Assembly: GCA_019633985.1 (NCBI GenBank)
Contig: JAHQWE010000005.1
Span: forward strand, 11,331-75,330
Origin: Acidiferrobacterales bacterium
Lineage (GTDB): Bacteria; Pseudomonadota; Gammaproteobacteria; Arenicellales; Poriferihabitantaceae
Reading direction: 5' to 3'
Length of the DNA: 64,000 nucleotides
The notes under the pieces were generated by a model. The model was not told the DNA's origin and did no database searches. It was given only the letters and a program-made list of their open reading frames with translations. Each line of letters starts with the position of its first letter. The first letter of the stretch is position 1. Positions 44,863 through 55,528 of this stretch are shown here, one piece after another. The translations under genes were made by a program, and so were the position numbers.

Positions 44863-46107
44863 ATGAAGCGTTTCCTTAAGTTCCTTTTACCACTCCTGAT
44901 ACTCGCAGCGGGGATTGGTGGATATCTCTATCTGAAGCAAACCAAACCTGAGATTGAGTCTGTCGCCTCGAAAGCGACTCTGCCTGTTGTCGCCGCCCAG
45001 CGTATTGCCAAGTCAGCGATTGCTCCGGGATTGACTCTATTTGGCCAAATAGAAGCACCCAGAAACACCGTGTTAACCGCCGGAATAGCAGCCGATGTAC
45101 TCGCCGTAAACGTTTTGGAGGGGGACATAGCGGTCAAAGACCAGCCTCTGGTCCTCCTGGATCAAGCAGATATCAACCTAGACATTTTGCAGAGACAAGC
45201 AGAAGTAGTGGAAATTGAGGCCCAGTTGGAAAGTGATCGAAGCCGGTTTGAAGCGGATAAGGAAGCGCTTAAACGAGAGAAGCAGCTGGTTGCTCTCAGC
45301 AATAAAGCCGTTGAGCGAGCCAGCACTCTGGCCCGTAGCAGCGCAGGCACCGAAGCGACGCTGGATGATGCCTTGCAACAGGTACAGCAACTTTTACTTG
45401 CAGTGACCCAGCGAGAGTTGGCAATCGCCGATTTTGAGTCGAGGCAAAAACTTTGGCGGGCTAGACTGGAGAAAGCGAAAGCGGTATTGGCTCGTTCGAA
45501 ACGTGACCTTGAACGCACAGCAGTAAGGGCACCCTTCGATGGCAGAGTGATTGACGTCATGGTTTCTCCAGGAGATCGAGCTGGATCCACGACCCAGTTG
45601 GTCAGGATATATGACGATACGGCGCTGGAAATTCGTGCTCAGGTACCGAGCAGGTATGTGCCGGTGCTGAGGAATGCCATCGCGGACAAACAATCTGTCA
45701 AGGCAGTCATGATTGACAACGCGAGAGAGATACCGCTCACTCTGGTTCGCCTGGCTGCAAGCGTTGTTCAAGGGCAGGGGGGGGTTGATGCGTTTTTTCG
45801 CGCGGCGCCAGGATCGCTTCCTGCACTGGGAAAAACGGTAGAACTCCAACTTGAGTTACCAGCAATAGCGAACGCGGTGGCTTTGTCACCCGAAGCTTTA
45901 TATGGCTCAAATTTAGTCTATAGAATTATTGATGGTGCACTGAAAGCACAATCTGTAGAGAGATTGGGACAAACGCTTGGCGGGCCGAACGGGGGGCGAA
46001 TGCTGGTTCGCGGTGATGTTTTCGATACAGGTGATCTGGTGTTGGACTCTCGTTTGCCACAGGCCATTGATGGATTGCGCGTAACCATAGAAGGGGAACC
46101 AGAGTAA
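44863..46107 (+). CDS. RND efflux periplasmic adaptor (MFP)
   Basis: N-terminal anchor, long coiled coil, VRAPFDG lipoyl half-motif. Confidence 0.9.
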   Translation: MKRFLKFLLPLLILAAGIGGYLYLKQTKPEIESVASKATLPVVAAQRIAKSAIAPGLTLFGQIEAPRNTVLTAGIAADVLAVNVLEGDIAVKDQPLVLLDQADINLDILQRQAEVVEIEAQLESDRSRFEADKEALKREKQLVALSNKAVERASTLARSSAGTEATLDDALQQVQQLLLAVTQRELAIADFESRQKLWRARLEKAKAVLARSKRDLERTAVRAPFDGRVIDVMVSPGDRAGSTTQLVRIYDDTALEIRAQVPSRYVPVLRNAIADKQSVKAVMIDNAREIPLTLVRLAASVVQGQGGVDAFFRAAPGSLPALGKTVELQLELPAIANAVALSPEALYGSNLVYRIIDGALKAQSVERLGQTLGGPNGGRMLVRGDVFDTGDLVLDSRLPQAIDGLRVTIEGEPE

Positions 46108-49100
46108 TGGCTGTCAGAGGGGCAGCGTCATCGATGCCGGGCCTGGACGCTCGCGGTGGTCTGATCGGTATCTTTTCCAATCATCCGGTTGCCGCAAATC
46201 TTCTGATGGTGATGATGTTGCTCGCAGGTTTCTGGGGAGTGAGGCAGCTTAACACCCAGTTTTTTCCGACATTTGCCATCGACTATGCCAGCGTGAGGGT
46301 AGTGTGGAGTGGGGCAAGTGCAGAAGATGTAGAGGAACTTATTACGACTTCGCTCGAACAGTCTTTGAGGGAGGTGGATTTCGTCAAACAGATTACATCG
46401 ACCTCATCGGAAGGTGTGGCATCAGTGTCTCTTGAGTTTCTTGAAGGCACAGACATGGCGAAGGCGGTTGATCAGGTTAAACAACAGGTCGATCAGGTTC
46501 AAAACCTGCCCGCTGACGCTGAAGAGCCGGTGGTTAGTCAGGTCATTCGCTATGAGACAGTGGCGCGGTTGATGATTACCGGGGGTCAGAACGTTGCAGA
46601 ATTAAGACCCCTGGTAAATCGATTCGAGGCGGAGCTGTTGAATCGTGGCATTGCCAAGATTTTTATACGCGGACTCCCTGATGAGCAAATAGCGATTGAG
46701 GTACCGGCGCGCAATTTGCGCGAATTAGGCCTGTCGCTGGACGATGTGGGGCAGCGAGTTGCAGCCTGGTCGAGGGACGTACCGGTCGGCATTATCGGAA
46801 GAGGAGAAATATCACGCCAGCTAAGATTCAGTGAACGGCGGGAGAGCGAGTTAGAGTTCGAGAGTATTCCTGTTGTTGCCGAGCAAAACGGCCGAAGGGT
46901 GGCGCTGGGCGACGTTGCCGAAATTACCCGCAAGCCCCGAGATGGACAGGTATCCATCACTTTTAAAGGTCAGCCTGCGGTAGAACTCAGACTTAGCCGC
47001 ACCGAAAACAGCGATAGTCTGGAAGCTGCCAACATTTTGCACACCTGGCTCGAAGATACTCGACCGACGTTACCTCCGGGTGTGGAAGTGGTCACCTACA
47101 ACGAGCGCTGGAAGGCACTACAGGGGCGAATCGGGTTGTTGGTTAAAAACGGTGTTGGTGGCCTGGCGCTGGTGCTCATCATTCTATTTCTATTTATGAA
47201 TGGCCGAGTGGCATTTTGGGTTGCGGTAGGTATTCCTGTTTCCTTTATGGCATCTCTTGCCGTTCTTTATGCAGTGGGTGGTTCGATCAATATGCTCAGC
47301 CTATTCGGATTAATAATGGCCCTGGGTATTATTGTTGACGATGCCATCGTGGTCGGTGAAGAGGCCATGAGTCAATATCAGCAGGGACAAAATCGTGCAC
47401 AGGCTGCAGAGAATGCTGCGCGAAGAATGTTAGGGCCGGTATTTTCTTCGTCTCTTACTAGTATCGCTGCGTTTATGCCGTTACTTTTGGTCGGAGGGAT
47501 TATTGGTTCAATCATGCAAGCCATACCGGTGGTGGTAATTTGTGTCATTATCGCGTCGCTGGTGGAGTGTTTTTTAATCATGCCAGGTCATCTTACACAC
47601 TCGTTCCGAAAGCTGGGAAACCGACCAGACACTAGAATTCGTAAACGGTTAAATGCCGCATTTGATCGTTTTAGGGACTTGCGGTTTCGACCATTCGTGA
47701 GCGCGGCGGTGGATCATCGCTGGACTACGCTCTCTGTTGCGATTGCCTTGCTCACAGTGACAGTTGGTTGGTCTGCGTCTGGCAGAATCGGCTTTCAGTT
47801 TTTTCCCACAGCAGAAGCAGATCGCATTTTTGCAAATGTTGGTTTCGTTTCAGGAACACCCTCAAGGGTTGTACAGAAGTATCTGGATGAAATGGAGTCC
47901 GCATTGAGAGAGACCGAAGAAGAGCTGGGCTCTGAGTTTGTCTCTCTGGTGGTAAGCCGTCATGGAGAGCTGGATGGCGCAAGTGGTCGCGGAGATCACT
48001 TTGGCAGCGTCCGCGCCGAGCTTGTCGACCCTGACAGGCGAGAGGTACGCAATCGCGACATTATTAAAGCATGGAGAGACCGATTACCGCCTATCCCAGG
48101 ACGTGAGTTTATGAGTATCGTAGAACCACGCGCTGGACCACCCGGCAGCGATCTGGATATACGCATTGTTGGTGGCAGTATTCAGCAGGTCAAGGCAGTA
48201 GCCGAAGAAATTACCGGCACACTCAGGCAAATCCCAGGTGTTTCTGGTATCGGCGATGACGCGCCGTATGGCCGGGAACAAATGGTATTGAAGCTCACCC
48301 CGGTGGCGGAAGCTCTGGGATTAAGTATTGATTCGATTTCGAGACAGCTTCGAGCGGCGTATGACGGGGTGAAAATTCAGGAGCTCTCAGATGGCTTCGA
48401 TGATATCGAGGTTCGCTTAATGCTCCCAGAAAGCGAGCGGGATTCGGTTGCCAGTTTGTCAGAACTTGATATCGTGTTGCCGAATGGCAATCTAGAGCCA
48501 ATCGGAAATCTGGCAACCGTCGAATTGTCCCGCGGTTTCGAAACCATCAGGCATTCGGATGGCAGATTAGCAGTGACAGTCACCGGGAGCGTTGATCCAA
48601 CGGTGGGGAATGCCAATCAGATTCGCAAAGACCTTGAGGCTGAGTTATTGCCTTCCCTTGCCAATCAGTACGGCGTGACTTTTGGGTTTGGTGGGCGCCA
48701 GCAGGACCAAAAAGAGACGTTAAGTGATATGAAAGTGGGTCTGGTTCTAGCCTTGAGCATGATCTACCTGGTTCTTTCCTGGGTATTCGGTTCCTACGGC
48801 TGGCCGCTCATTGTGATGTTTATCATTCCTTTTGGCGCTGTCGGCGCTATTTGGGGGCACGTTGCGATGGGAATCGACCTTACCGTCCTGTCTCTTTTCG
48901 GCTTGTTTGGGTTGTCAGGGATTGTAGTGAACGACTCCATTATTCTTGTGGTGTTTTATCGAGATTTGCGCATAAAAGGTATGCGAGCGCGAGACGCTGT
49001 GATCGAGGCAGCTTGCCAGAGACTACGCGCCGTACTGCTAACTTCCCTTACGACAGTGGCAGGTCTGACCCCATTGCTGTTTGAGACATCACTGCAGGCC

Positions 49101-49250
49101 CAGTTTCTCATTCCGATGGCGACCAGTCTGGCGTTTGGGCTCGCATTCGCGACTCTCTTAGTGCTATTTTTGGTGCCTTCTCTGCTGCTCATTTACGAGA
49201 ATGCAGCAAATCGCTTGAAACCCAAGGAGCCAATTGCGGTAACGATCTAA
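46107..49250 (+). CDS. RND efflux permease (AcrB/D/F family)
   Basis: 1047 aa with GIIVDDAIVV, GIVVNDSI, RLRAVLLTSLTT. Confidence 0.95.
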   Translation: MAVRGAASSMPGLDARGGLIGIFSNHPVAANLLMVMMLLAGFWGVRQLNTQFFPTFAIDYASVRVVWSGASAEDVEELITTSLEQSLREVDFVKQITSTSSEGVASVSLEFLEGTDMAKAVDQVKQQVDQVQNLPADAEEPVVSQVIRYETVARLMITGGQNVAELRPLVNRFEAELLNRGIAKIFIRGLPDEQIAIEVPARNLRELGLSLDDVGQRVAAWSRDVPVGIIGRGEISRQLRFSERRESELEFESIPVVAEQNGRRVALGDVAEITRKPRDGQVSITFKGQPAVELRLSRTENSDSLEAANILHTWLEDTRPTLPPGVEVVTYNERWKALQGRIGLLVKNGVGGLALVLIILFLFMNGRVAFWVAVGIPVSFMASLAVLYAVGGSINMLSLFGLIMALGIIVDDAIVVGEEAMSQYQQGQNRAQAAENAARRMLGPVFSSSLTSIAAFMPLLLVGGIIGSIMQAIPVVVICVIIASLVECFLIMPGHLTHSFRKLGNRPDTRIRKRLNAAFDRFRDLRFRPFVSAAVDHRWTTLSVAIALLTVTVGWSASGRIGFQFFPTAEADRIFANVGFVSGTPSRVVQKYLDEMESALRETEEELGSEFVSLVVSRHGELDGASGRGDHFGSVRAELVDPDRREVRNRDIIKAWRDRLPPIPGREFMSIVEPRAGPPGSDLDIRIVGGSIQQVKAVAEEITGTLRQIPGVSGIGDDAPYGREQMVLKLTPVAEALGLSIDSISRQLRAAYDGVKIQELSDGFDDIEVRLMLPESERDSVASLSELDIVLPNGNLEPIGNLATVELSRGFETIRHSDGRLAVTVTGSVDPTVGNANQIRKDLEAELLPSLANQYGVTFGFGGRQQDQKETLSDMKVGLVLALSMIYLVLSWVFGSYGWPLIVMFIIPFGAVGAIWGHVAMGIDLTVLSLFGLFGLSGIVVNDSIILVVFYRDLRIKGMRARDAVIEAACQRLRAVLLTSLTTVAGLTPLLFETSLQAQFLIPMATSLAFGLAFATLLVLFLVPSLLLIYENAANRLKPKEPIAVTI

Positions 49251-49333: not shown

Positions 49334-50776
49334 ATGATAATAGAGATACCACGCCCTGGTAAAAGGGGGGGGAATAGTTTGACTTCGTGCAAGAGCATGC
49401 TGAAATTGGCGGCCGTTAGTCTTGCCTCTTGCGGCTTGTTGAGCTCACCTGCTCTGGCGATTGAATCCTTCACTGATTCCATTTCTCCCACCGGTTACCT
49501 CGCATTTGATAGCAAGAGTCAGGCTCATACAGGTGGATTATGGTACCAGCTGGAAGAAAGCGATTCCCGGGACTGGTTAACGCGATATACCGAACCTGGC
49601 GAGACTCTGGTGCGATCGACCTTGTCGCTGGACCAGCAGTTCACCAACCACCGGTTGCATTTTGGGCGGGCGGAAGCCAGTGACCAACAGTTCAATCAAT
49701 TTGGCGTTTCCTTGGGTAAAACCACAGTGCTCGGGTTTAGTGGTGAAGGCAACACCACCAGCAGTATTGCGCACAGATACAATCACGTTGATCCGTTTCA
49801 TTTTCACGGTGGCTTGCGTCAAAACTATCGCTACGATGGTGCACACTTCGCCTATCAGTTGAATGCCAACAATCAAATTGGGTTTACCCAGACCGTGATC
49901 ACCGCTCCTGACTTATTTGATCGCACCGTAACCGGATTTGATTGGCAGGGCCGAAGAGCCAGCATGTCGCTGATGCAAGTTTCGGTAGGTGATGAGGATG
50001 CAGGTGTCGCCGCCAGTGGAGTCATGCGGTTTGGCCGCTTGAACGTTGCCGCGGACTACCTGCGAGCCGAAAATGATGCAACGTTTGCCAGTCTGGCGTT
50101 TCAAACTTACTCTCAAGATGGCAAGCGCTTTGGGCTACGTGCAGAGCAACGTCGAAATCCGCTTTTTTCAGACGCCAACGAAAATCGGGTAACTTTTAGT
50201 TTGGCTTTTGATATTCAGTCTGTGCCGCGTTTTAACGCTGAGGAAACAGAAACAACTGAAGACGAAACAGTTCAAAAAGGAAAAGGCGCAGGTCTATTAA
50301 TTGGAGCTGGCGTAGTTGGAGCTGGTGTGGCAATCAGTTCAGGTGGAGGTGGCGGATCCGATGGCCGAGCGCGATTTAGCACGCAACAAGAATCCGCTTT
50401 TAACGTGCTGAATAGCATTAACCCTACTTCGGTTCGGCAAAATAGAGAGCATGGCGGATACGTTTATCGCAATGCCGATGGAAGCTTTTCTTCAACCGTA
50501 CCGATTCAGGGCGAATTAGCCAGCGTGTCGTTACCCGCCCCGCAGTCTGTTGCGCCTCCAGGAGGCCAAACCACGGCAAGCTATCATACTCACGGGGGGT
50601 TTGATCCACGATTTGATAACGAAAACTTCTCTCCTCAGGATATTATTTCTGACATTGTATTTGGTCTAGATGGTTATCTTGGCACACCGGCGGGTCAGTT
50701 TAAGTATCACAACCTTCGCGCCAACACGATAGTAACTCTAGGCGGCCCCGGAACCCTGGCGACGGGATCACTCTAA
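49334..50776 (+). CDS. Secreted beta-rich protein with C-terminal DUF4329 (JAB-like) domain
   Basis: Signal peptide (PALA-I), amphipathic strands, Gly-rich hydrophobic helix, then NREHGG...YHTHG...FSPQD...DGYLGTPAG. GGAGG RBS upstream. Confidence 0.75.
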   Translation: MIIEIPRPGKRGGNSLTSCKSMLKLAAVSLASCGLLSSPALAIESFTDSISPTGYLAFDSKSQAHTGGLWYQLEESDSRDWLTRYTEPGETLVRSTLSLDQQFTNHRLHFGRAEASDQQFNQFGVSLGKTTVLGFSGEGNTTSSIAHRYNHVDPFHFHGGLRQNYRYDGAHFAYQLNANNQIGFTQTVITAPDLFDRTVTGFDWQGRRASMSLMQVSVGDEDAGVAASGVMRFGRLNVAADYLRAENDATFASLAFQTYSQDGKRFGLRAEQRRNPLFSDANENRVTFSLAFDIQSVPRFNAEETETTEDETVQKGKGAGLLIGAGVVGAGVAISSGGGGGSDGRARFSTQQESAFNVLNSINPTSVRQNREHGGYVYRNADGSFSSTVPIQGELASVSLPAPQSVAPPGGQTTASYHTHGGFDPRFDNENFSPQDIISDIVFGLDGYLGTPAGQFKYHNLRANTIVTLGGPGTLATGSL

Positions 50777-50791: not shown

Positions 50792-51274
50792 ATGAAAAAA
50801 CGGTTTGCCAGCCTTTTGGGCCCTAGAGCAGCGGCATTGCTGCTGTTCTGGTCCAGTTGTGTACTGGCTACGCAGGACGCAGCAGTATCAGAAGCCAGGG
50901 AATTTGTGCAGAGAGCCCATCTATGCGGGCTTGATCATGGGTACCAGTGTTCTGAGCCGGTGGAGAGCGATTTTATAGGTCTGGACGCCGATAGAGCGAT
51001 GGTACCAGGCAGCTATCTGGCTGCCTGGCAAGTTGCACTAGAAGCATTTCGATCGATTGAGGATTTATCATCTGGAGAAAAACAACTGCAGCACTACAAG
51101 ATTGGTTTTAGTGAAAACGAAACCCAGTACGTTGTGCATTTTCAGGCGCTGTTGTTACCTTCGATGAGCGAAGGTGAGCCCAGCGGAATCATGCGAGGTA
51201 CTTTTGGTCGAACGACCCGCTATTGGATTAATAAAGATTCAATGAAAGTAGAAAAGAGGTTGTACTACAAGTAG
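50792..51274 (+). CDS. Secreted hypothetical protein, putative immunity partner
   Basis: Signal peptide, 160 aa, starts 15 nt after the DUF4329 gene. Confidence 0.65.
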   Translation: MKKRFASLLGPRAAALLLFWSSCVLATQDAAVSEAREFVQRAHLCGLDHGYQCSEPVESDFIGLDADRAMVPGSYLAAWQVALEAFRSIEDLSSGEKQLQHYKIGFSENETQYVVHFQALLLPSMSEGEPSGIMRGTFGRTTRYWINKDSMKVEKRLYYK

Positions 51275-51302: not shown

Positions 51303-52316
51303 CTACACAACGATTGCATTGCGAAGCTTCGTAATTTCGTCTACCTCCGTTGGTATATCTTTCCCTCGCATCCTCTGTAGTCGCGGCTGGTTTACCGCTT
51401 GGTTTTCTCCAAGATCGCTGGCGACACTGCGCGCGGAGTCTGGGTCATTACAAATCAACACCATGTCGCAACCCGCAGCCAACGCTTTGTTTGCTCTCTG
51501 CGTTGGTGAACCCGCAACTTCTGCACCTTTCATCGTTAAGTCATCGCTAAAAACCAAACCATTAAAACCCAACGACTGTCTCAAGACTTTCTGTATCCAA
51601 AAAGAAGAGAATGTTGGAAGGTCTTGGTCGATATTGGGAAAAGCGATATGGGCGGTCATTACCGCTGCGAGTTGATTACCCAATTGCCGATAGGGCTTGA
51701 GATCAGAACGCAGAATTTCCTCAAAAGACCGTTGGTCGCTGGGCGTCTCTAGATGGGAATCTTCTACCACCCCACCGTGTCCGGGAAAGTGTTTTCCTGT
51801 GGCCTGCATTCCAGCGCTCATCATCCCGTCTATGTAGGCGGAAGCTAACTGAGTGATGCAATCAGGATGTTCATGGAATCCGCGGTCTCCGATGATTTGA
51901 CTCTTCGGGTTGGCGATATCCAGAACCGGAGCAAAACTGAAATCAATTCCAAACTTACGAAGCTCCAAAGCCATAAGCCTAGCGGCGCTGTAGGCTCGTT
52001 GCACAGCATTTTCCGGATCTGCTCGAATATCCGTTCCCAGGGACAGGAGTGGCGGCAATGCCACGAAGTGTTCACGGAAGCGTTGAACCCTGCCCCCTTC
52101 CTGATCTACGGCAATGAGTAACGATGGAGAGCGCAGTTGCTTGATTTCGTTGATCAGATTCCTTAATTGCGCAGGGGATTCAAAGTTTCGGCTGAATAGA
52201 ATCACCGCGCCCAGTGCAGGCTGTTGTAAAAAGCGGCGCTCCTCAGTGGTAAGAGACAGTCCGGAGACATCCGCCATTAAGGGGCCGAGCGGTAAATTTA
52301 CGATGCTATTCATCAA
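51303..52316 (-). CDS. nagZ: Beta-N-acetylhexosaminidase
   Basis: VDQEGGRVQR, KHFPGHG...DSH, FSDDL.M. Confidence 0.95.
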   Translation of the reverse strand: MMNSIVNLPLGPLMADVSGLSLTTEERRFLQQPALGAVILFSRNFESPAQLRNLINEIKQLRSPSLLIAVDQEGGRVQRFREHFVALPPLLSLGTDIRADPENAVQRAYSAARLMALELRKFGIDFSFAPVLDIANPKSQIIGDRGFHEHPDCITQLASAYIDGMMSAGMQATGKHFPGHGGVVEDSHLETPSDQRSFEEILRSDLKPYRQLGNQLAAVMTAHIAFPNIDQDLPTFSSFWIQKVLRQSLGFNGLVFSDDLTMKGAEVAGSPTQRANKALAAGCDMVLICNDPDSARSVASDLGENQAVNQPRLQRMRGKDIPTEVDEITKLRNAIVV

Positions 52317-52806
52317 TCAATACCGGTGTTCCCACCTTGAGCAAATCGAACAGAAAAATCACTTCCTGGTTACGCATACGGATGCACCCGTGGGAACCAG
52401 GTACGCCCATTTCTACTTCGTCCGGTGTGCCATGTATGTAGACATAGCGACGCATGGTATCGACCGAACCCAGCCGATTCCTGCCGGGTTCACAGCCGCT
52501 CAACCAAAGAATTCGAGTAAGAATCCAGTCTCGATCGGGATATTTTTGGCGTAACTCCGGATGATAGATTTCACCGCTCGGACGTCGGCCAATAAAAACA
52601 GTGTTTGCGGGGGCATCATGGCCGATTTTAGCGCGAATGATGTGCATGCCTCGGGGCGTGCAGAAACTGCCGTTTTCCTCACCGGCGCCATTGCCAGCGG
52701 TGGATACGGAAAAAATGTGTGTGGTCTCACAATTTTCGACAACAGCAAGTGTTTGCGAGGCGATATTAATCTCAACCTGAGTGGCCGGCCCGTCGTGTTC
52801 TCTCAT
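52306..52806 (-). CDS. L,D-transpeptidase (YkuD family)
   Basis: TPRG, YIHGT, SHGCIRM. Confidence 0.9.
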   Translation of the reverse strand: MREHDGPATQVEINIASQTLAVVENCETTHIFSVSTAGNGAGEENGSFCTPRGMHIIRAKIGHDAPANTVFIGRRPSGEIYHPELRQKYPDRDWILTRILWLSGCEPGRNRLGSVDTMRRYVYIHGTPDEVEMGVPGSHGCIRMRNQEVIFLFDLLKVGTPVLIDE

Positions 52807-52815
52807 TATCGGCTG

Positions 52816-53313
52816 CTATGTATTTACCGAAGGCTTACCGCGAATAGCAGAGAGTAAACCACTACAGGCAGATTCAAGTAGATCAAGGACATGATCAAAT
52901 CCATTCTCACCACCGTAATATGGGTCGGGCACTTCTTTCAGATCGGTCGTGCTGGAAAATGAAAGCATGAGCTGAATTTTTTTTGCTGCATCGGGTTCGA
53001 TTGAATCGGCTGCGAGTGCCCGGAGGTCTGATTGGTTGGAGAGATCCATAGCAATAATGTGATCAAAGTGCGAGAAATCTTCAACGGCGATTTGACGCGC
53101 TCTCAGCTGATCGATCTGGTAGCCTCGCCGTGACGCGGCAGCCTGGGCACGGGTATCCGGCGGATTCCCGATATGCCAGTTACCGGTGCCAGCGGAATCT
53201 ATCATGATCTGGTCAGACAGGGCAGCGCGCTGGACCTGGTCTCTAAAAACCCCCTCTGCGGACGGCGAGCGACAGATATTTCCCAAGCAGACAAAGAGGA
53301 CAGAAGTGGACAA
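52816..53313 (-). CDS. Low-molecular-weight protein-tyrosine phosphatase
   Basis: VCLGNICRS, DSAGT, VPDPYY. Confidence 0.94.
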   Translation of the reverse strand: MSTSVLFVCLGNICRSPSAEGVFRDQVQRAALSDQIMIDSAGTGNWHIGNPPDTRAQAAASRRGYQIDQLRARQIAVEDFSHFDHIIAMDLSNQSDLRALAADSIEPDAAKKIQLMLSFSSTTDLKEVPDPYYGGENGFDHVLDLLESACSGLLSAIRGKPSVNT

Positions 53314-53317
53314 GCTC

Positions 53318-55528
53318 TTAGCGACTGCGTTGCAGTTTGATGACCGATTTGTCGAGGTGAAGTTCTCGCATGATTTCAGCGAGATGGTTTCGATTCAATA
53401 CTTCTATTACAAACAGCATACGTGAAACATTACCGGCCTGCTCTTCGACAGTGAGTTTATTGATATTGGCATCATGGGAAGCGATGATATTGGTCAGCTC
53501 TGATAATACTCCCGGTTGATTGCGGGCGGTCAGCGTCAGTAACACCTCAAAATTACCCTTGGTATTTTCTGACCAGTTCAAATGAAAAAATTGATCCGGA
53601 TGCTTCATTACACTGCGTGTATTGGCACAACGAAGGCGATGGATCACCAGACCCTTGTCAGAAGTGGTGGTGCCAATGATTCGGTCATCGGGGATGGGGT
53701 AGCAGCACTTTGCGTAGTTCACCAGTAAACCCTCGGTGCCTTCAATGGTCATTTTTCCGTAGTTGGTTTTATTGTTGCTTTTGGGTTTTGCTCGGGTCTT
53801 TTTTTCGGGCAGCATTACCTCAGCCAAAAACTGCTTCGCCACCAGCGGCGCCAGCCTTTTACCAAAACCAATATCCGCCAGCAGTTCTGGCCAGTCCTTC
53901 AGATCAAGCGCGTTCAGCAGCGCGATTTTATGGTTACTGGGAATACGTATACGTCGGTAGCCTTGATCCCAAAGTGCTTTCTTGAACAGCTTTTGTCCCA
54001 ACTTTACCGACTGCCTGGTTTTTTGTTTGTTCAGGTAATGGCGTATGGTCGAGCGCGCTTTCGAGGTTACCGCATAATTCAACCAACCCGGCTCGGGTCG
54101 CGAACGATTCGATGTGATAATTTCGATATGGTTGCCATTGCGTAAATTCTCATACAGTGGCACCGCCCGGTTATCGACCCTCGCTCCGACGCAGCGATTG
54201 CCAATGTCAGTGTGCACCGAGTATGCGAAATCCAGGGCAGTGGCGCCTCGTGGCAGGCGCTTGATGTCTCCCTTAGGTGTAAACACATAGACTTCGTCCG
54301 GATAAAGATCAGCCTTGAGGTGTTCGATAAACTCGCCGGAATCTGACGACATCTGCTGAGATTCCAAAAAGCTGCTTAACCATTTTTGTGCGAGCTGCTG
54401 TGGAGCAGATTCATCGGTGGTGTCGGTTTTGTATCGCCAGTGTGAAGCGACTCCTGATTCCGCAATTCGGTGCATCGCGCGACTACGAATTTGGACTTCC
54501 ACCGGTTGACCATAGGGGCCGAATACCGACGTGTGTAAGGACTGATATCCATTTGCTTTCGGGATCGCGATGTAGTCCTTAAAACTGGCGGGCCTCGGCT
54601 TATAGAGAGTATGAATAATGCCGAGCACCAAGTAACACTGGTTGCGATTGTCGGTAATCACCCGTAACGCATTGATGTCGGCGATATCACGCAGGTCAAT
54701 TTTGAGCTGCTTCTTCGCTTTACGATAAATACTATAAATGGTTTTTTCGCGGCCACCAACTTCAGCGATAATGTTGTGACGTCCGAGTGCCTCGTTAATT
54801 TTCAGGCAGGCCTCGTCAACGATTGATTTTCTTCCTCTGCTGTTGCTGTCGAGCATTTTCTTTATTGCTCGATAGCGCTTTGGGTGCAAATTTTGAAGCG
54901 ATAAATCTTCGAGAGTGGTGGAGAGCTCTCTCATGCCGATGCGGTTAGCGATCGGGGCATAGATATCCAGGGTTTGCTTGGCAATACGTTGGCGCTTCTC
55001 TTCCTTGAGCGAACCGAGGGTTCGCATATTGTGCAGTCGGTCGCAGAGTTTGATGATAATGACGCGAATATCCTGCGCCATGGCCATGAACATCTTTCGA
55101 AATGAGGCGGTTTCAGCGCTTTCCGGATTCTGTCTGGAGTCGAGTTCCAGCTGGCTTACTTTACTGACACCATCAACGAGCAGCGCCACGTCTTCGCCGA
55201 ATTTTTCCGATAGCTCGGCCAGGGTAACGGGAGTATCTTCAACCACATCATGCAGAATCGCAGCGACGATAGTGCGGCTGTCCATGCGCATCTCTCCCAA
55301 TATGCCGGCGACGGCAACCGGGTGAGAGATATAGGCTTCCCCACTTTGGCGGGTTTGCCCTTCATGGGCTTGAGCGCCAAATTCGCAGGCGAGATCGATC
55401 TCGGCAAGGGACGCGGTGTCCATGTACTCGCCGAGTTTATTGAGTAATGCTTTTACCAGCGGTCGATGGGATTCATCGACCCTGGATTCGGGTCTGGAAC
55501 GGAAGAGTTTTGCTTCAGGAAGCGGCAT
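53318..55528 (-). CDS. spoT: Bifunctional (p)ppGpp synthetase/hydrolase
   Basis: HD motif LHDVVED, YQSLHT, EVQIR, TGS and ACT domains. Follows rpoZ. Confidence 0.95.
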   Translation of the reverse strand: MPLPEAKLFRSRPESRVDESHRPLVKALLNKLGEYMDTASLAEIDLACEFGAQAHEGQTRQSGEAYISHPVAVAGILGEMRMDSRTIVAAILHDVVEDTPVTLAELSEKFGEDVALLVDGVSKVSQLELDSRQNPESAETASFRKMFMAMAQDIRVIIIKLCDRLHNMRTLGSLKEEKRQRIAKQTLDIYAPIANRIGMRELSTTLEDLSLQNLHPKRYRAIKKMLDSNSRGRKSIVDEACLKINEALGRHNIIAEVGGREKTIYSIYRKAKKQLKIDLRDIADINALRVITDNRNQCYLVLGIIHTLYKPRPASFKDYIAIPKANGYQSLHTSVFGPYGQPVEVQIRSRAMHRIAESGVASHWRYKTDTTDESAPQQLAQKWLSSFLESQQMSSDSGEFIEHLKADLYPDEVYVFTPKGDIKRLPRGATALDFAYSVHTDIGNRCVGARVDNRAVPLYENLRNGNHIEIITSNRSRPEPGWLNYAVTSKARSTIRHYLNKQKTRQSVKLGQKLFKKALWDQGYRRIRIPSNHKIALLNALDLKDWPELLADIGFGKRLAPLVAKQFLAEVMLPEKKTRAKPKSNNKTNYGKMTIEGTEGLLVNYAKCCYPIPDDRIIGTTTSDKGLVIHRLRCANTRSVMKHPDQFFHLNWSENTKGNFEVLLTLTARNQPGVLSELTNIIASHDANINKLTVEEQAGNVSRMLFVIEVLNRNHLAEIMRELHLDKSVIKLQRSR

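Follow-up and report, generated by a model that had tools for sequence, protein, structure and literature searches.

A predicted outer-membrane barrel joined to a DUF4329/JAB domain and encoded with a dedicated secreted partner, a candidate regulated envelope enzyme of gammaproteobacteria

Within a window of 64,000 nucleotides from an Acidiferrobacterales bacterium (the whole stretch of DNA analysed here; contig JAHQWE010000005.1 of assembly GCA_019633985.1, positions 11,331 to 75,330), we investigated a two-gene module. Its first gene encodes a protein, here named the barrel-JAB protein, in which a predicted outer-membrane beta-barrel is followed by an acidic linker, an apolar helix, and a DUF4329/JAB domain; the second encodes a small secreted protein, here named the partner (Table 1). 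With middling confidence, we propose that the module comprises a JAB metallohydrolase held in the periplasm by an OmpA-like outer-membrane anchor, together with a periplasmic cap protein that gates it; its features suggest a regulated envelope enzyme more than a swappable toxin. DUF4329, also known as Tox-JAB-2, is a widespread toxin-type domain, which is here hard-wired to a predicted outer-membrane barrel and paired with a dedicated secreted partner. An initial annotation of this DNA, made from the letters alone, had described the first gene as a possible self-displayed toxin, and its open reading frame (ORF) and all the motifs that it quoted were recovered in place in the translation.

The C-terminal domain carries the enzymatic part of this proposal. 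Residues 353-468 match the Pfam family DUF4329 (PF14220) with an E-value of 2.3e-28 and 98.9 bits, against a cut-off of 28.6, and the same family is matched by 42 of 42 relatives in our alignment of diverse family members. E372 (in E372-HGG), H418, H420, S433, and D436 are invariant in these aligned sequences, and the motifs of the domain are YHTHG (residues 417-421, nt 50582-50596), FSPQD (432-436), and GYLGTP (447-452). Gene content was compared at 80 of the 266 confirmed relatives, taken from one-genome-per-species contigs; HTH-x12-S..D was present in 78 of these 80 loci, and N.E.GG likewise in 78. By Foldseek against the PDB, the whole-protein model matched the complex of an Rpn11 homologue with ubiquitin (6fnn_A, probability 1.00, TM 0.44), while in a library of viral models the top match was a model of 155 aa (TM 0.63, rmsd 3.1 A), other matches being RadC proteins, a deubiquitination hydrolase, and p25 of Xanthomonas phage Xop411. 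The domain is thus predicted by these models to adopt the JAB/MPN fold, which is deaminase-like and of the alpha+beta type, in agreement with the E...HxH...S..D signature of DUF4329 first noticed in the letters. Passages of Zhang et al. 2012 (PMC3482391) name DUF4329 as Tox-JAB-2, a clade of the JAB superfamily with E, H[ST]H, S, and D, which occurs on Rhs and other polymorphic toxins and also in secreted proteins of phages and large DNA viruses. Surveys of Salmonella and Xanthomonas that cover the domain are bioinformatic in their consulted sections, and no activity of DUF4329/Tox-JAB-2 is reported in the literature searched.

The source genome encodes a second, stand-alone DUF4329 protein of 181 aa with a signal-like leader (nt 1471-2016 of locus L082, minus strand; contig C13 of genome G000). 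This protein shows the motifs WHTHG, FSPQD, and DGYLGTP, directly adjoins a caspase-like ORF of 453 aa, and has no barrel, Gly-zipper, or partner homologue; the genome contains one partner match only.

The first 350 residues of the barrel-JAB protein have no Pfam family, none of the 42 family members matches an outer-membrane Pfam family, and the family profile retrieved no sequence from the PDB at E<=1. Scans against NCBIfam, PADLOC, and PHROGs gave no match for the barrel-JAB protein or for the partner. We used AlphaFold2 (AF2) with the 42-row alignment to model the whole protein (mean pLDDT 77.1, pTM 0.62). The model contains 15 strands of 5-13 residues within residues 53-292, mostly at pLDDT values of about 85-95, the last one being NRVTFSLAF (284-292). 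Past the barrel follow a disordered stretch (296-320, pLDDT <50), a helix (323-334), a second disordered stretch (337-346), and an alpha/beta domain (351-470). The top 46 Foldseek matches in the PDB are all membrane beta-barrels with a probability of about 1.0; the best is the Rhodobacter blastica porin (E 6.6e-5, TM 0.46 normalised to the target, rmsd about 8 A), and OmpG, OMPLA, OmpU, LptD, VDAC, and FimD are further fold matches. Hydrophobicity, averaged over the alignment, alternates along most strands, with inward-facing positions that are strongly polar. In the ESM Atlas, residues 45-340 gave scores all below 0.9, namely 0.87 for a porin-like match, 0.84 for an IAT_beta cluster, and 0.84 for a DUF4329 cluster, which we consider as leads only. 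The strands, the fold matches, and the alternation agree with the barrel-like appearance noted initially, and the N-terminal part of about 240 aa is predicted to be an outer-membrane barrel, its closure and its strand number (14, possibly 15) being predictions as well.

More specifically, the 14 confident strands (65-292) are joined by connections of 18, 23, 6, and 8 residues on one side and by turns of 2-5 residues on the other. In outer-membrane proteins, the side with the long loops is usually external; following this rule, the asymmetry of loop lengths would put both ends of the barrel in the periplasm. The 23-residue loop holds DPFHFHGG and a short helix and resembles the constriction loop of porins. 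Invariant residues of the N-terminal part are F157, H158, and G160, all in DPFHFHGG, and N275, in NPL.

Between the barrel and the enzyme, mean identity to the query is 26% for the acidic linker and 56% for the apolar helix (42 aligned). The helix GAGLLIGAGVVGAGVAISS and the following GGGGG cover residues 318-341 (nt 50285-50356), the apolar run ending in SS is present in 77 of the 80 loci, and S335, S336, G338, and R347 are invariant around the helix and the hinge. The Gly-zipper element singled out by the initial annotation is therefore a conserved part of the protein. As the helix is entirely apolar and the predicted lumen of the barrel is polar, the helix is unlikely to reside in the lumen. 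The Sec signal claimed for the protein is also readable in the translation, as a signal-like N-terminus that ends in ...SSPALA|IESF (residues ~22-42), and a hydrophobic leader is found at the N-terminus of the homologues in the alignment too. The ATG is preceded, 11 nt upstream, by an AGGAGG Shine-Dalgarno sequence, and a second candidate start, M22 (49397), has a weaker one.

Table 1. Parts of the barrel-JAB module in the window and the basis on which each was assigned.
Feature	Position (nt)	Strand	Basis
Barrel-JAB fusion gene, 480 aa, stop included	49334..50776	+	ORF list
Signal peptide, residues 1-42	49334..49459	+	Long basic n-region, core LKLAAVSLAS.GLL, cleavage-like site PALA|I; read from translation
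Predicted 14-15-stranded outer-membrane beta-barrel, residues 53-292	49490..50209	+	AF2 strands, Foldseek, hydrophobicity alternation
Acidic, variable linker, residues 293-317, with EETETTEDE (303-311)	50210..50284	+	Low pLDDT, 26% mean identity
Gly-zipper-like apolar helix GAGLLIGAGVVGAGVAISS (318-336), then Gly/Ser/Asp hinge	50285..50383	+	AF2 helix, conservation
DUF4329/Tox-JAB-2 domain, residues 351-470	50384..50743	+	Pfam, invariant residues, JAB-fold matches
Secreted partner gene, 160 aa, cap/inhibitor candidate	50792..51274	+	ORF list; 15 nt past barrel-JAB gene

This architecture is fixed across the family. A search of 5.8 billion clustered proteins returned 145 relatives at E<=1e-3, and the 120 of them that were listed are 293-506 aa long, align over 60-100% of the query, and carry PF14220 without exception. 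In the aligned members, mean identity to the query is 31% in the strand-rich part and 64% in the DUF4329 domain. The initial annotation had proposed a polymorphic-toxin tip and had itself counted an invariant C-terminal domain as an argument against this idea; the C-terminal domain is indeed invariant across the family and is its best-conserved part. When residues 1-315 alone were run with phmmer on 1.84 billion representatives, 46 proteins were returned, almost all of them 434-503 aa long. Thirteen of the 46 were already known as DUF4329 carriers, and 27 of the 33 new ones, which were scanned, have the domain. Six of the 33 are 98-389 aa long and lack both C-terminal motifs; they are probably the ones without DUF4329, and probably fragments or frameshifted calls. 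Within HMMER's reach, the N-terminal domain, as judged by these sequence searches, occurs only with a DUF4329 C-terminal domain. A match to a protein of 5330 aa (P0152, E 6.2e-4, in five short stretches) was dropped as a likely spurious match to beta-rich repeats. A search for shorter C-terminal forms gave 27 matches, almost all of them on contigs no longer than a few kb; these are, for this reason, probably fragments and uninformative on the architecture. As the initial annotation had suspected, no description of the barrel-JAB architecture was found in the literature searched, which did not extend to Additional File 1 of Zhang et al. 2012, where it may be listed under 'T2SS' (signal-peptide) Tox-JAB-2. 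DUF4329 itself is a known family, but that literature describes neither its joining, through a Gly-zipper helix, to a predicted barrel without annotation nor the secreted partner family dedicated to it.

The second gene of the module is the sole neighbour common to more than 16 of the 80 loci. The partner profile was found in 48 of them (47 by single-sequence tblastn), always directly downstream of the barrel-JAB gene and on the same strand. In 18 loci (e.g., L002-L006, L018, L020, and L024), the first possible start of the partner overlaps the barrel-JAB stop by 4 nt, suggesting translational coupling, with start codons taken as the first possible ones. The partner family, aligned from 34 sequences, shows a signal peptide and a conserved basic C-terminus: the last alignment column holds K or R in 34 of 34, as the very last residue in 31 and followed by one extra residue in 3. 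A Cys pair (C45/C53) is present in 31 of the 34, and the other 3 lose both Cys together. None of the 34 sequences matches a Pfam family, immunity families included, at E<=0.05, and for 8 members nothing relevant appeared at E<=10. The AF2 model of the partner (pLDDT 90.7) consists of helices followed by a six-stranded curved sheet, with no PDB fold matched at E<=1e-3; the weak matches are cystatin/NTF2-like, with chemerin as the best (2.5e-2), the NTF2 domain of RsgI9, and SnoaL-type cyclases.

A lipobox could not be established for the partner, as a loose pattern matched 14 of the 34 leaders, some of them at implausible places. The signal peptides of some partners end in a small residue followed by Cys in a lipobox-like manner (LSAC in L057, IVSC in L012, and WSSC in the window), and, judging from these sequences, lipoproteins may occur among the partners. 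In a passage of Zhang et al. 2012 (PMC3482391), Tox-JAB-1 is paired with Imm65, a lipoprotein carrying a YxC motif, and a conserved G-Y-x-C of the partner family can be placed alongside it.

We modelled the complex of JAB residues 345-480 with residues 27-160 of the partner. The model scored an ipSAE of 0.78, versus 0.01 for the best of three controls, a value that expresses model confidence and not a measurement; the same mark was reached by 58 of 80 solved complexes and by 2 of 110 mismatched pairs, counts that are rough since our own alignments were used. The runs share at least 97% of contacts, with a partner pLDDT of at least 91. On the JAB side, the predicted interface contains E372, H420, and S433-D436, and on the partner side the sheet and the last five residues, 156-160; in the model, the C-terminal strand of the partner and residues 156-160 lie against JAB residues 424-428 and 433-435, beside the metal site. 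Among the modelled contacts, 427/428 pair with 158/159, and 434 pairs with 116/118/141. As this interface includes catalytic residues, the partner would be placed over the catalytic cleft.

Sequence variation at the interface was then compared between loci with and without the partner, leaving out L014, L041, L060, and L063, which have too little downstream DNA. At 22 non-catalytic interface positions, column entropy is 1.43 in the 48 partner-carrying loci versus 1.77 in the 28 partner-less ones, while at 93 non-interface positions it is 1.31 versus 1.27. This relaxation (Mann-Whitney p = 0.003, relatedness ignored) is strongest at positions 397, 429, 434, 435, and 439. The relaxation of the interface in partner-less loci is an independent check that points the same way as the complex model.

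We also examined how the two genes are distributed. The 266 module loci come from marine, sponge-associated, and saline gammaproteobacteria. Among 121 sampled genomes of the order, compared by hand and not phylogenetically independent, the barrel-JAB gene is present in 59, with the partner in 36 of these and without it in 23; in the 62 genomes lacking the barrel-JAB gene, the partner is present in none and absent from all 62, so that all 36 partner carriers are enzyme carriers. In one family, the barrel gene occurs in 18 of 20 genomes and the partner in 1 of 20. When five partner-less genomes were searched whole, four had no partner anywhere and the fifth had the partner of a second copy. The motifs HTH-x12-S..D and N.E.GG are retained in the partner-less loci. 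Polymorphic toxin systems behave otherwise: as a rule, the toxin comes with an immunity gene, and orphan immunity genes are common. The distribution of the barrel-JAB gene and the partner is the reverse of this toxin-immunity logic. An enzyme tolerated without its binder, together with a binder never found without the enzyme, is more readily understood as a resident enzyme with its regulator or cap than as a self-lethal toxin with its antidote. The linkage in 48 of 80 loci, the complex model, and the strict dependence on the enzyme support the functional link suspected for the downstream gene, and the 160-aa secreted protein is a dedicated partner of the barrel-JAB protein.

Several genomes hold two diverged barrel-JAB copies (L045/L050, L046/L055, L039/L080, L049/L051, and L063/L064), and two genomes have a partner beside only one of their copies, so that both copies may share it. 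On contig C13 of genome G047 (229609-229896), a second partner match covers only part of the profile (positions 60-155); no second barrel-JAB gene was reported for this genome, and this match is the sole hint of an orphan partner fragment. In the partner-less clade L058-L076 (Acidiferrobacteraceae-type and related metagenome-assembled genomes), an ORF of about 436 aa lies directly downstream and is FAD-dependent-oxidoreductase-like by its translation, and in another partner-less group this place is taken by a multi-pass membrane ORF of about 293 aa.

Considering these results, we propose the following mechanism. The product of the first gene would leave the cytoplasm by the Sec route and be inserted in the outer membrane as a barrel of 14 (possibly 15) strands, the last of which would end on the periplasmic side. 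The acidic flexible linker, the apolar Gly-zipper helix, and the Gly/Ser hinge would then tether the JAB domain, a putative zinc hydrolase, beneath the outer membrane, the helix probably lying in or against the inner leaflet or serving as an oligomerisation element. The product of the second gene, periplasmic and disulfide-bonded, would bind so as to cover the catalytic cleft of the JAB domain, its own conserved C-terminal strand and basic C-terminus packing against the H-x-H/S-x-x-D loop, and would thereby act as a cap or inhibitor that gates the enzyme. If the cap is periplasmic, the activity to be gated is most simply periplasmic too, and the enzyme would act on an envelope substrate; a periplasmic activity would in turn favour, as a guess, a peptide/isopeptide-type bond over nucleic acid, located in peptidoglycan or in a wall- or membrane-linked protein and not in a cytoplasmic target of rival cells.

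This arrangement recalls OmpA-type proteins, in which an N-terminal barrel and a hinge are followed by a periplasmic C-terminal domain. The barrel-JAB protein likewise has a signal peptide, a predicted barrel, a flexible hinge, and a globular C-terminal domain, with a predicted periplasmic exit of the last strand. It differs by its 14-15 predicted strands instead of 8, by a JAB hydrolase in the place of the peptidoglycan-binding OmpA_C, by the additional apolar Gly-zipper helix, and by its dedicated partner gene; no OmpA or OmpA_C profile matches it, so that the likeness is one of architecture and not of membership. Periplasm-acting hydrolases with secreted inhibitors are also known, such as the amidase effectors of type VI secretion systems (T6SS) with their periplasmic immunity proteins, or lysozyme with its Ivy-type inhibitors. 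As in these pairs, a hydrolase-type domain is accompanied here by a small, secreted, disulfide-bonded protein predicted over the active site, and the genes are adjacent. Unlike them, the enzyme is anchored by its own predicted outer-membrane barrel and is neither injected nor soluble, and the fold families differ on both sides.

We know of no JAB/MPN enzyme that acts in the cell envelope, and the location of the partner argues that this one does. The pair is a compact, testable system for finding the substrate of DUF4329; it could show how a 'toxin' domain is domesticated or gated and what the barrel and the cap do, both of them protein families without annotation.

The first alternative, which we regard as unlikely, is that the module is an autonomous antibacterial effector. 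The barrel would then export the JAB domain to the surface in the manner of an inverse autotransporter, or the protein would be shed on vesicles; the Gly-zipper helix would aid membrane insertion into the target, and the partner would be an immunity protein for the envelope of the producer. Several observations support this alternative or otherwise weigh against a gated envelope enzyme. DUF4329 is the C-terminal toxin domain Tox-JAB-2 of Rhs and other polymorphic toxins in the consulted passages of Zhang et al. 2012 (PMC3482391), where a nuclease activity is surmised from the likeness to RadC and the immunity protein is given as Imm-NTF2-2; the domain is otherwise tied to Rhs/T6SS toxins in the literature, and a 2024 preprint, in the part consulted, states its activity and substrate as unknown. 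Masking of the catalytic residues, as predicted for the cap, is just what would be expected of an immunity protein, and the score of the complex model speaks of confidence only; the genes are adjacent and possibly translationally coupled, and both proteins are secreted. Furthermore, the orientation proposed for the JAB domain derives from loop lengths and from the periplasmic partner. The best-conserved elements of the barrel (the long loop with DPFHFHGG, and NPL...NE.R) are on the predicted outer/lumenal side and would likewise be compatible with a linker running through the barrel. The distribution is patchy: the module is accessory in the order (59 of 121 genomes) and in the window's own family (1 of 19 other genomes), is found in most genomes of several other families of the order, and occurs as two diverged copies in some genomes. 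Finally, the mature barrel-JAB protein is Cys-free in 41 of 42 relatives, as passengers of autotransporters usually are, and the order of its parts, N-terminal barrel and then C-terminal domain, is that of type Ve secretion.

The resemblance to inverse autotransporters (type Ve; intimin/invasin), which had been proposed at first as the topology of the protein, was examined at the level of the barrel. The likeness consists of the N-terminal barrel, the linker, the C-terminal functional domain, and the Cys-free C-terminal part. Nevertheless, no match to IAT_beta (PF11924) was found in the barrel-JAB protein at E<=0.1 in Pfam, and a search of the whole source genome with PF11924 gave 0 matches, while an E. 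coli control was matched. When the barrel columns were compared by hhalign with 8 IAT_beta barrels (from 12 matched loci; 7 of the 8 are mutually related by phmmer), the probability was 0.05%, and barrels of intimin and invasin are missing from the top 50 fold matches. The barrel of intimin has 12 strands. Unlike inverse autotransporters, the barrel-JAB protein has more predicted strands, sets an apolar helix against a polar lumen, and shows no Ig-like or lectin passenger and no LysM.

With Tox-JAB-2 toxins, the likeness lies in the Pfam family (98.9 bits), the E/H[ST]H/S/D signature, and the JAB fold, and, with respect to the pair Tox-JAB-2/Imm-NTF2-2, in a small alpha+beta partner encoded directly downstream with weak cystatin/NTF2-like fold matches. 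On the other hand, the carrier here is a predicted outer-membrane barrel instead of Rhs, PAAR, WXG, or TcdB, the domain is not interchangeable, and the partner has a signal peptide, a disulfide, and no Pfam family. The enzyme is frequently without its partner, and a search of the entire assembly, which is 88% complete, gave no match to RHS repeats or to the T6SS sheath gene (VipB). The initial annotation had already seen no Rhs, VgrG, PAAR, or CdiB gene in the window; two ShlB/TpsB-type genes are on other contigs of the assembly, and no T5b/CdiB, T6SS, T7SS, or Tc delivery genes occur among the recurrent neighbours of the 80 loci.

Taken together, an effector is opposed by a C-terminal domain that never varies, by 23 of 59 genomes that keep the enzyme, motif intact, without the partner, set beside 0 of 62 enzyme-negative genomes with a partner, by the lack of IAT_beta similarity, by a polar lumen that suits an apolar helix poorly, by a stable syntenic chromosomal site without signs of mobile elements or a GC shift, and by an assembly in which T6SS and Rhs were not found. 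From the first reading of the module as a self-displayed toxin, the toxin-family domain, the barrel, and the linked downstream gene are retained; the variable tip and the inverse-autotransporter barrel are not.

We consider it rather improbable, and more speculative, that the module is either a self-sufficient outer-membrane toxin-delivery module of an undescribed kind or the first periplasmic JAB/MPN isopeptidase under cap control. In the former case, the 14-strand barrel would thread the Gly-zipper linker and the JAB domain to the surface, or carry the enzyme into vesicles, and the enzyme would in this way arrive at the envelope of other bacteria, while the periplasmic cap would protect the producer, and partner-less lineages would be retargeted or disarmed versions. 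In the latter case, the enzyme would cut protein-peptidoglycan or peptidoglycan cross-links.

A further alternative keeps the periplasmic topology and takes the partner for the substrate of the enzyme, a product mimic, or a specificity subunit instead of an inhibitor, and to this we give slightly less credit still. For example, the C-terminus of the partner might be processed or de-conjugated, as ubiquitin-like tails are by JAMM enzymes, or the partner might be a non-catalytic subunit that positions the substrate. Such a role would agree with the C-terminal strand and residues 156-160 lying beside the metal site in the complex model, with the K/R at the last partner column in 34 of 34, with the strict dependence of the partner on the enzyme, and with the PDB match of the JAB domain to a ubiquitin:Rpn11-homologue complex. 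However, the C-terminus of the partner is part of a beta-strand in a compact, confidently folded sheet and offers no free tail, it has no Gly-Gly end, and toxin-type JAB clades are described, in a passage of Zhang et al. 2012 (PMC3482391), as being without the residues of the ubiquitin-tail tunnel. Moreover, partner-less lineages keep the catalytic motif, so that the partner cannot be the only substrate.

That the N-terminal domain is a soluble, beta-rich, periplasmic or secreted module, and the protein a secreted DUF4329 enzyme with a binding domain, seems to us highly improbable: the absence of a sequence family match for this part, the moderate TM-scores (0.46 to the porin, rmsd about 8 A), a barrel closure that is itself a prediction, and the secreted stand-alone 181-aa DUF4329 protein of the source genome would agree with it, but the top 46 PDB matches are all membrane barrels at a probability of about 1.0, the 14-15 long strands are connected by hairpins and modelled at high pLDDT, and dyad hydrophobicity and an aromatic-ended last strand are those of a membrane barrel.

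We finally considered the genes around the module, which we continue to read as a gated envelope enzyme and its cap. GC content is flat across the region, and a simple scan found no terminator-like site between or 3' of the two genes. Upstream (44863-49250, plus strand) lies an operon-like pair of a membrane-fusion protein (HlyD_3) and an AcrB-type RND pump. This pair has no recognisable outer-membrane factor gene, and the barrel-JAB gene occupies the place where one might be expected. A functional link with the efflux pair was nevertheless rejected, as homologues of its two genes are nearby in 8 of the 80 loci only, all of them close relatives.

Downstream, a convergent cluster (51303-55528, minus strand) comprises a NagZ-like glycoside hydrolase, a YkuD-type L,D-transpeptidase-like ORF, a low-molecular-weight phosphatase-like ORF, and a RelA/SpoT homologue, names that are partly readings of the translations. 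In 12 of the 80 loci, NagZ and a YkuD-like gene are no more than about 6 kb away from the module, and 3 of these loci have a differing arrangement; this was taken as local synteny, and the two neighbours were rejected as a hint to function. The flanking genes (aroE-like, TPK-like, the RND pair, NagZ, YkuD, the PTP, and SpoT) are retained down to 34% identity, e.g., in L024, and the barrel-JAB module sits in a stable chromosomal context.

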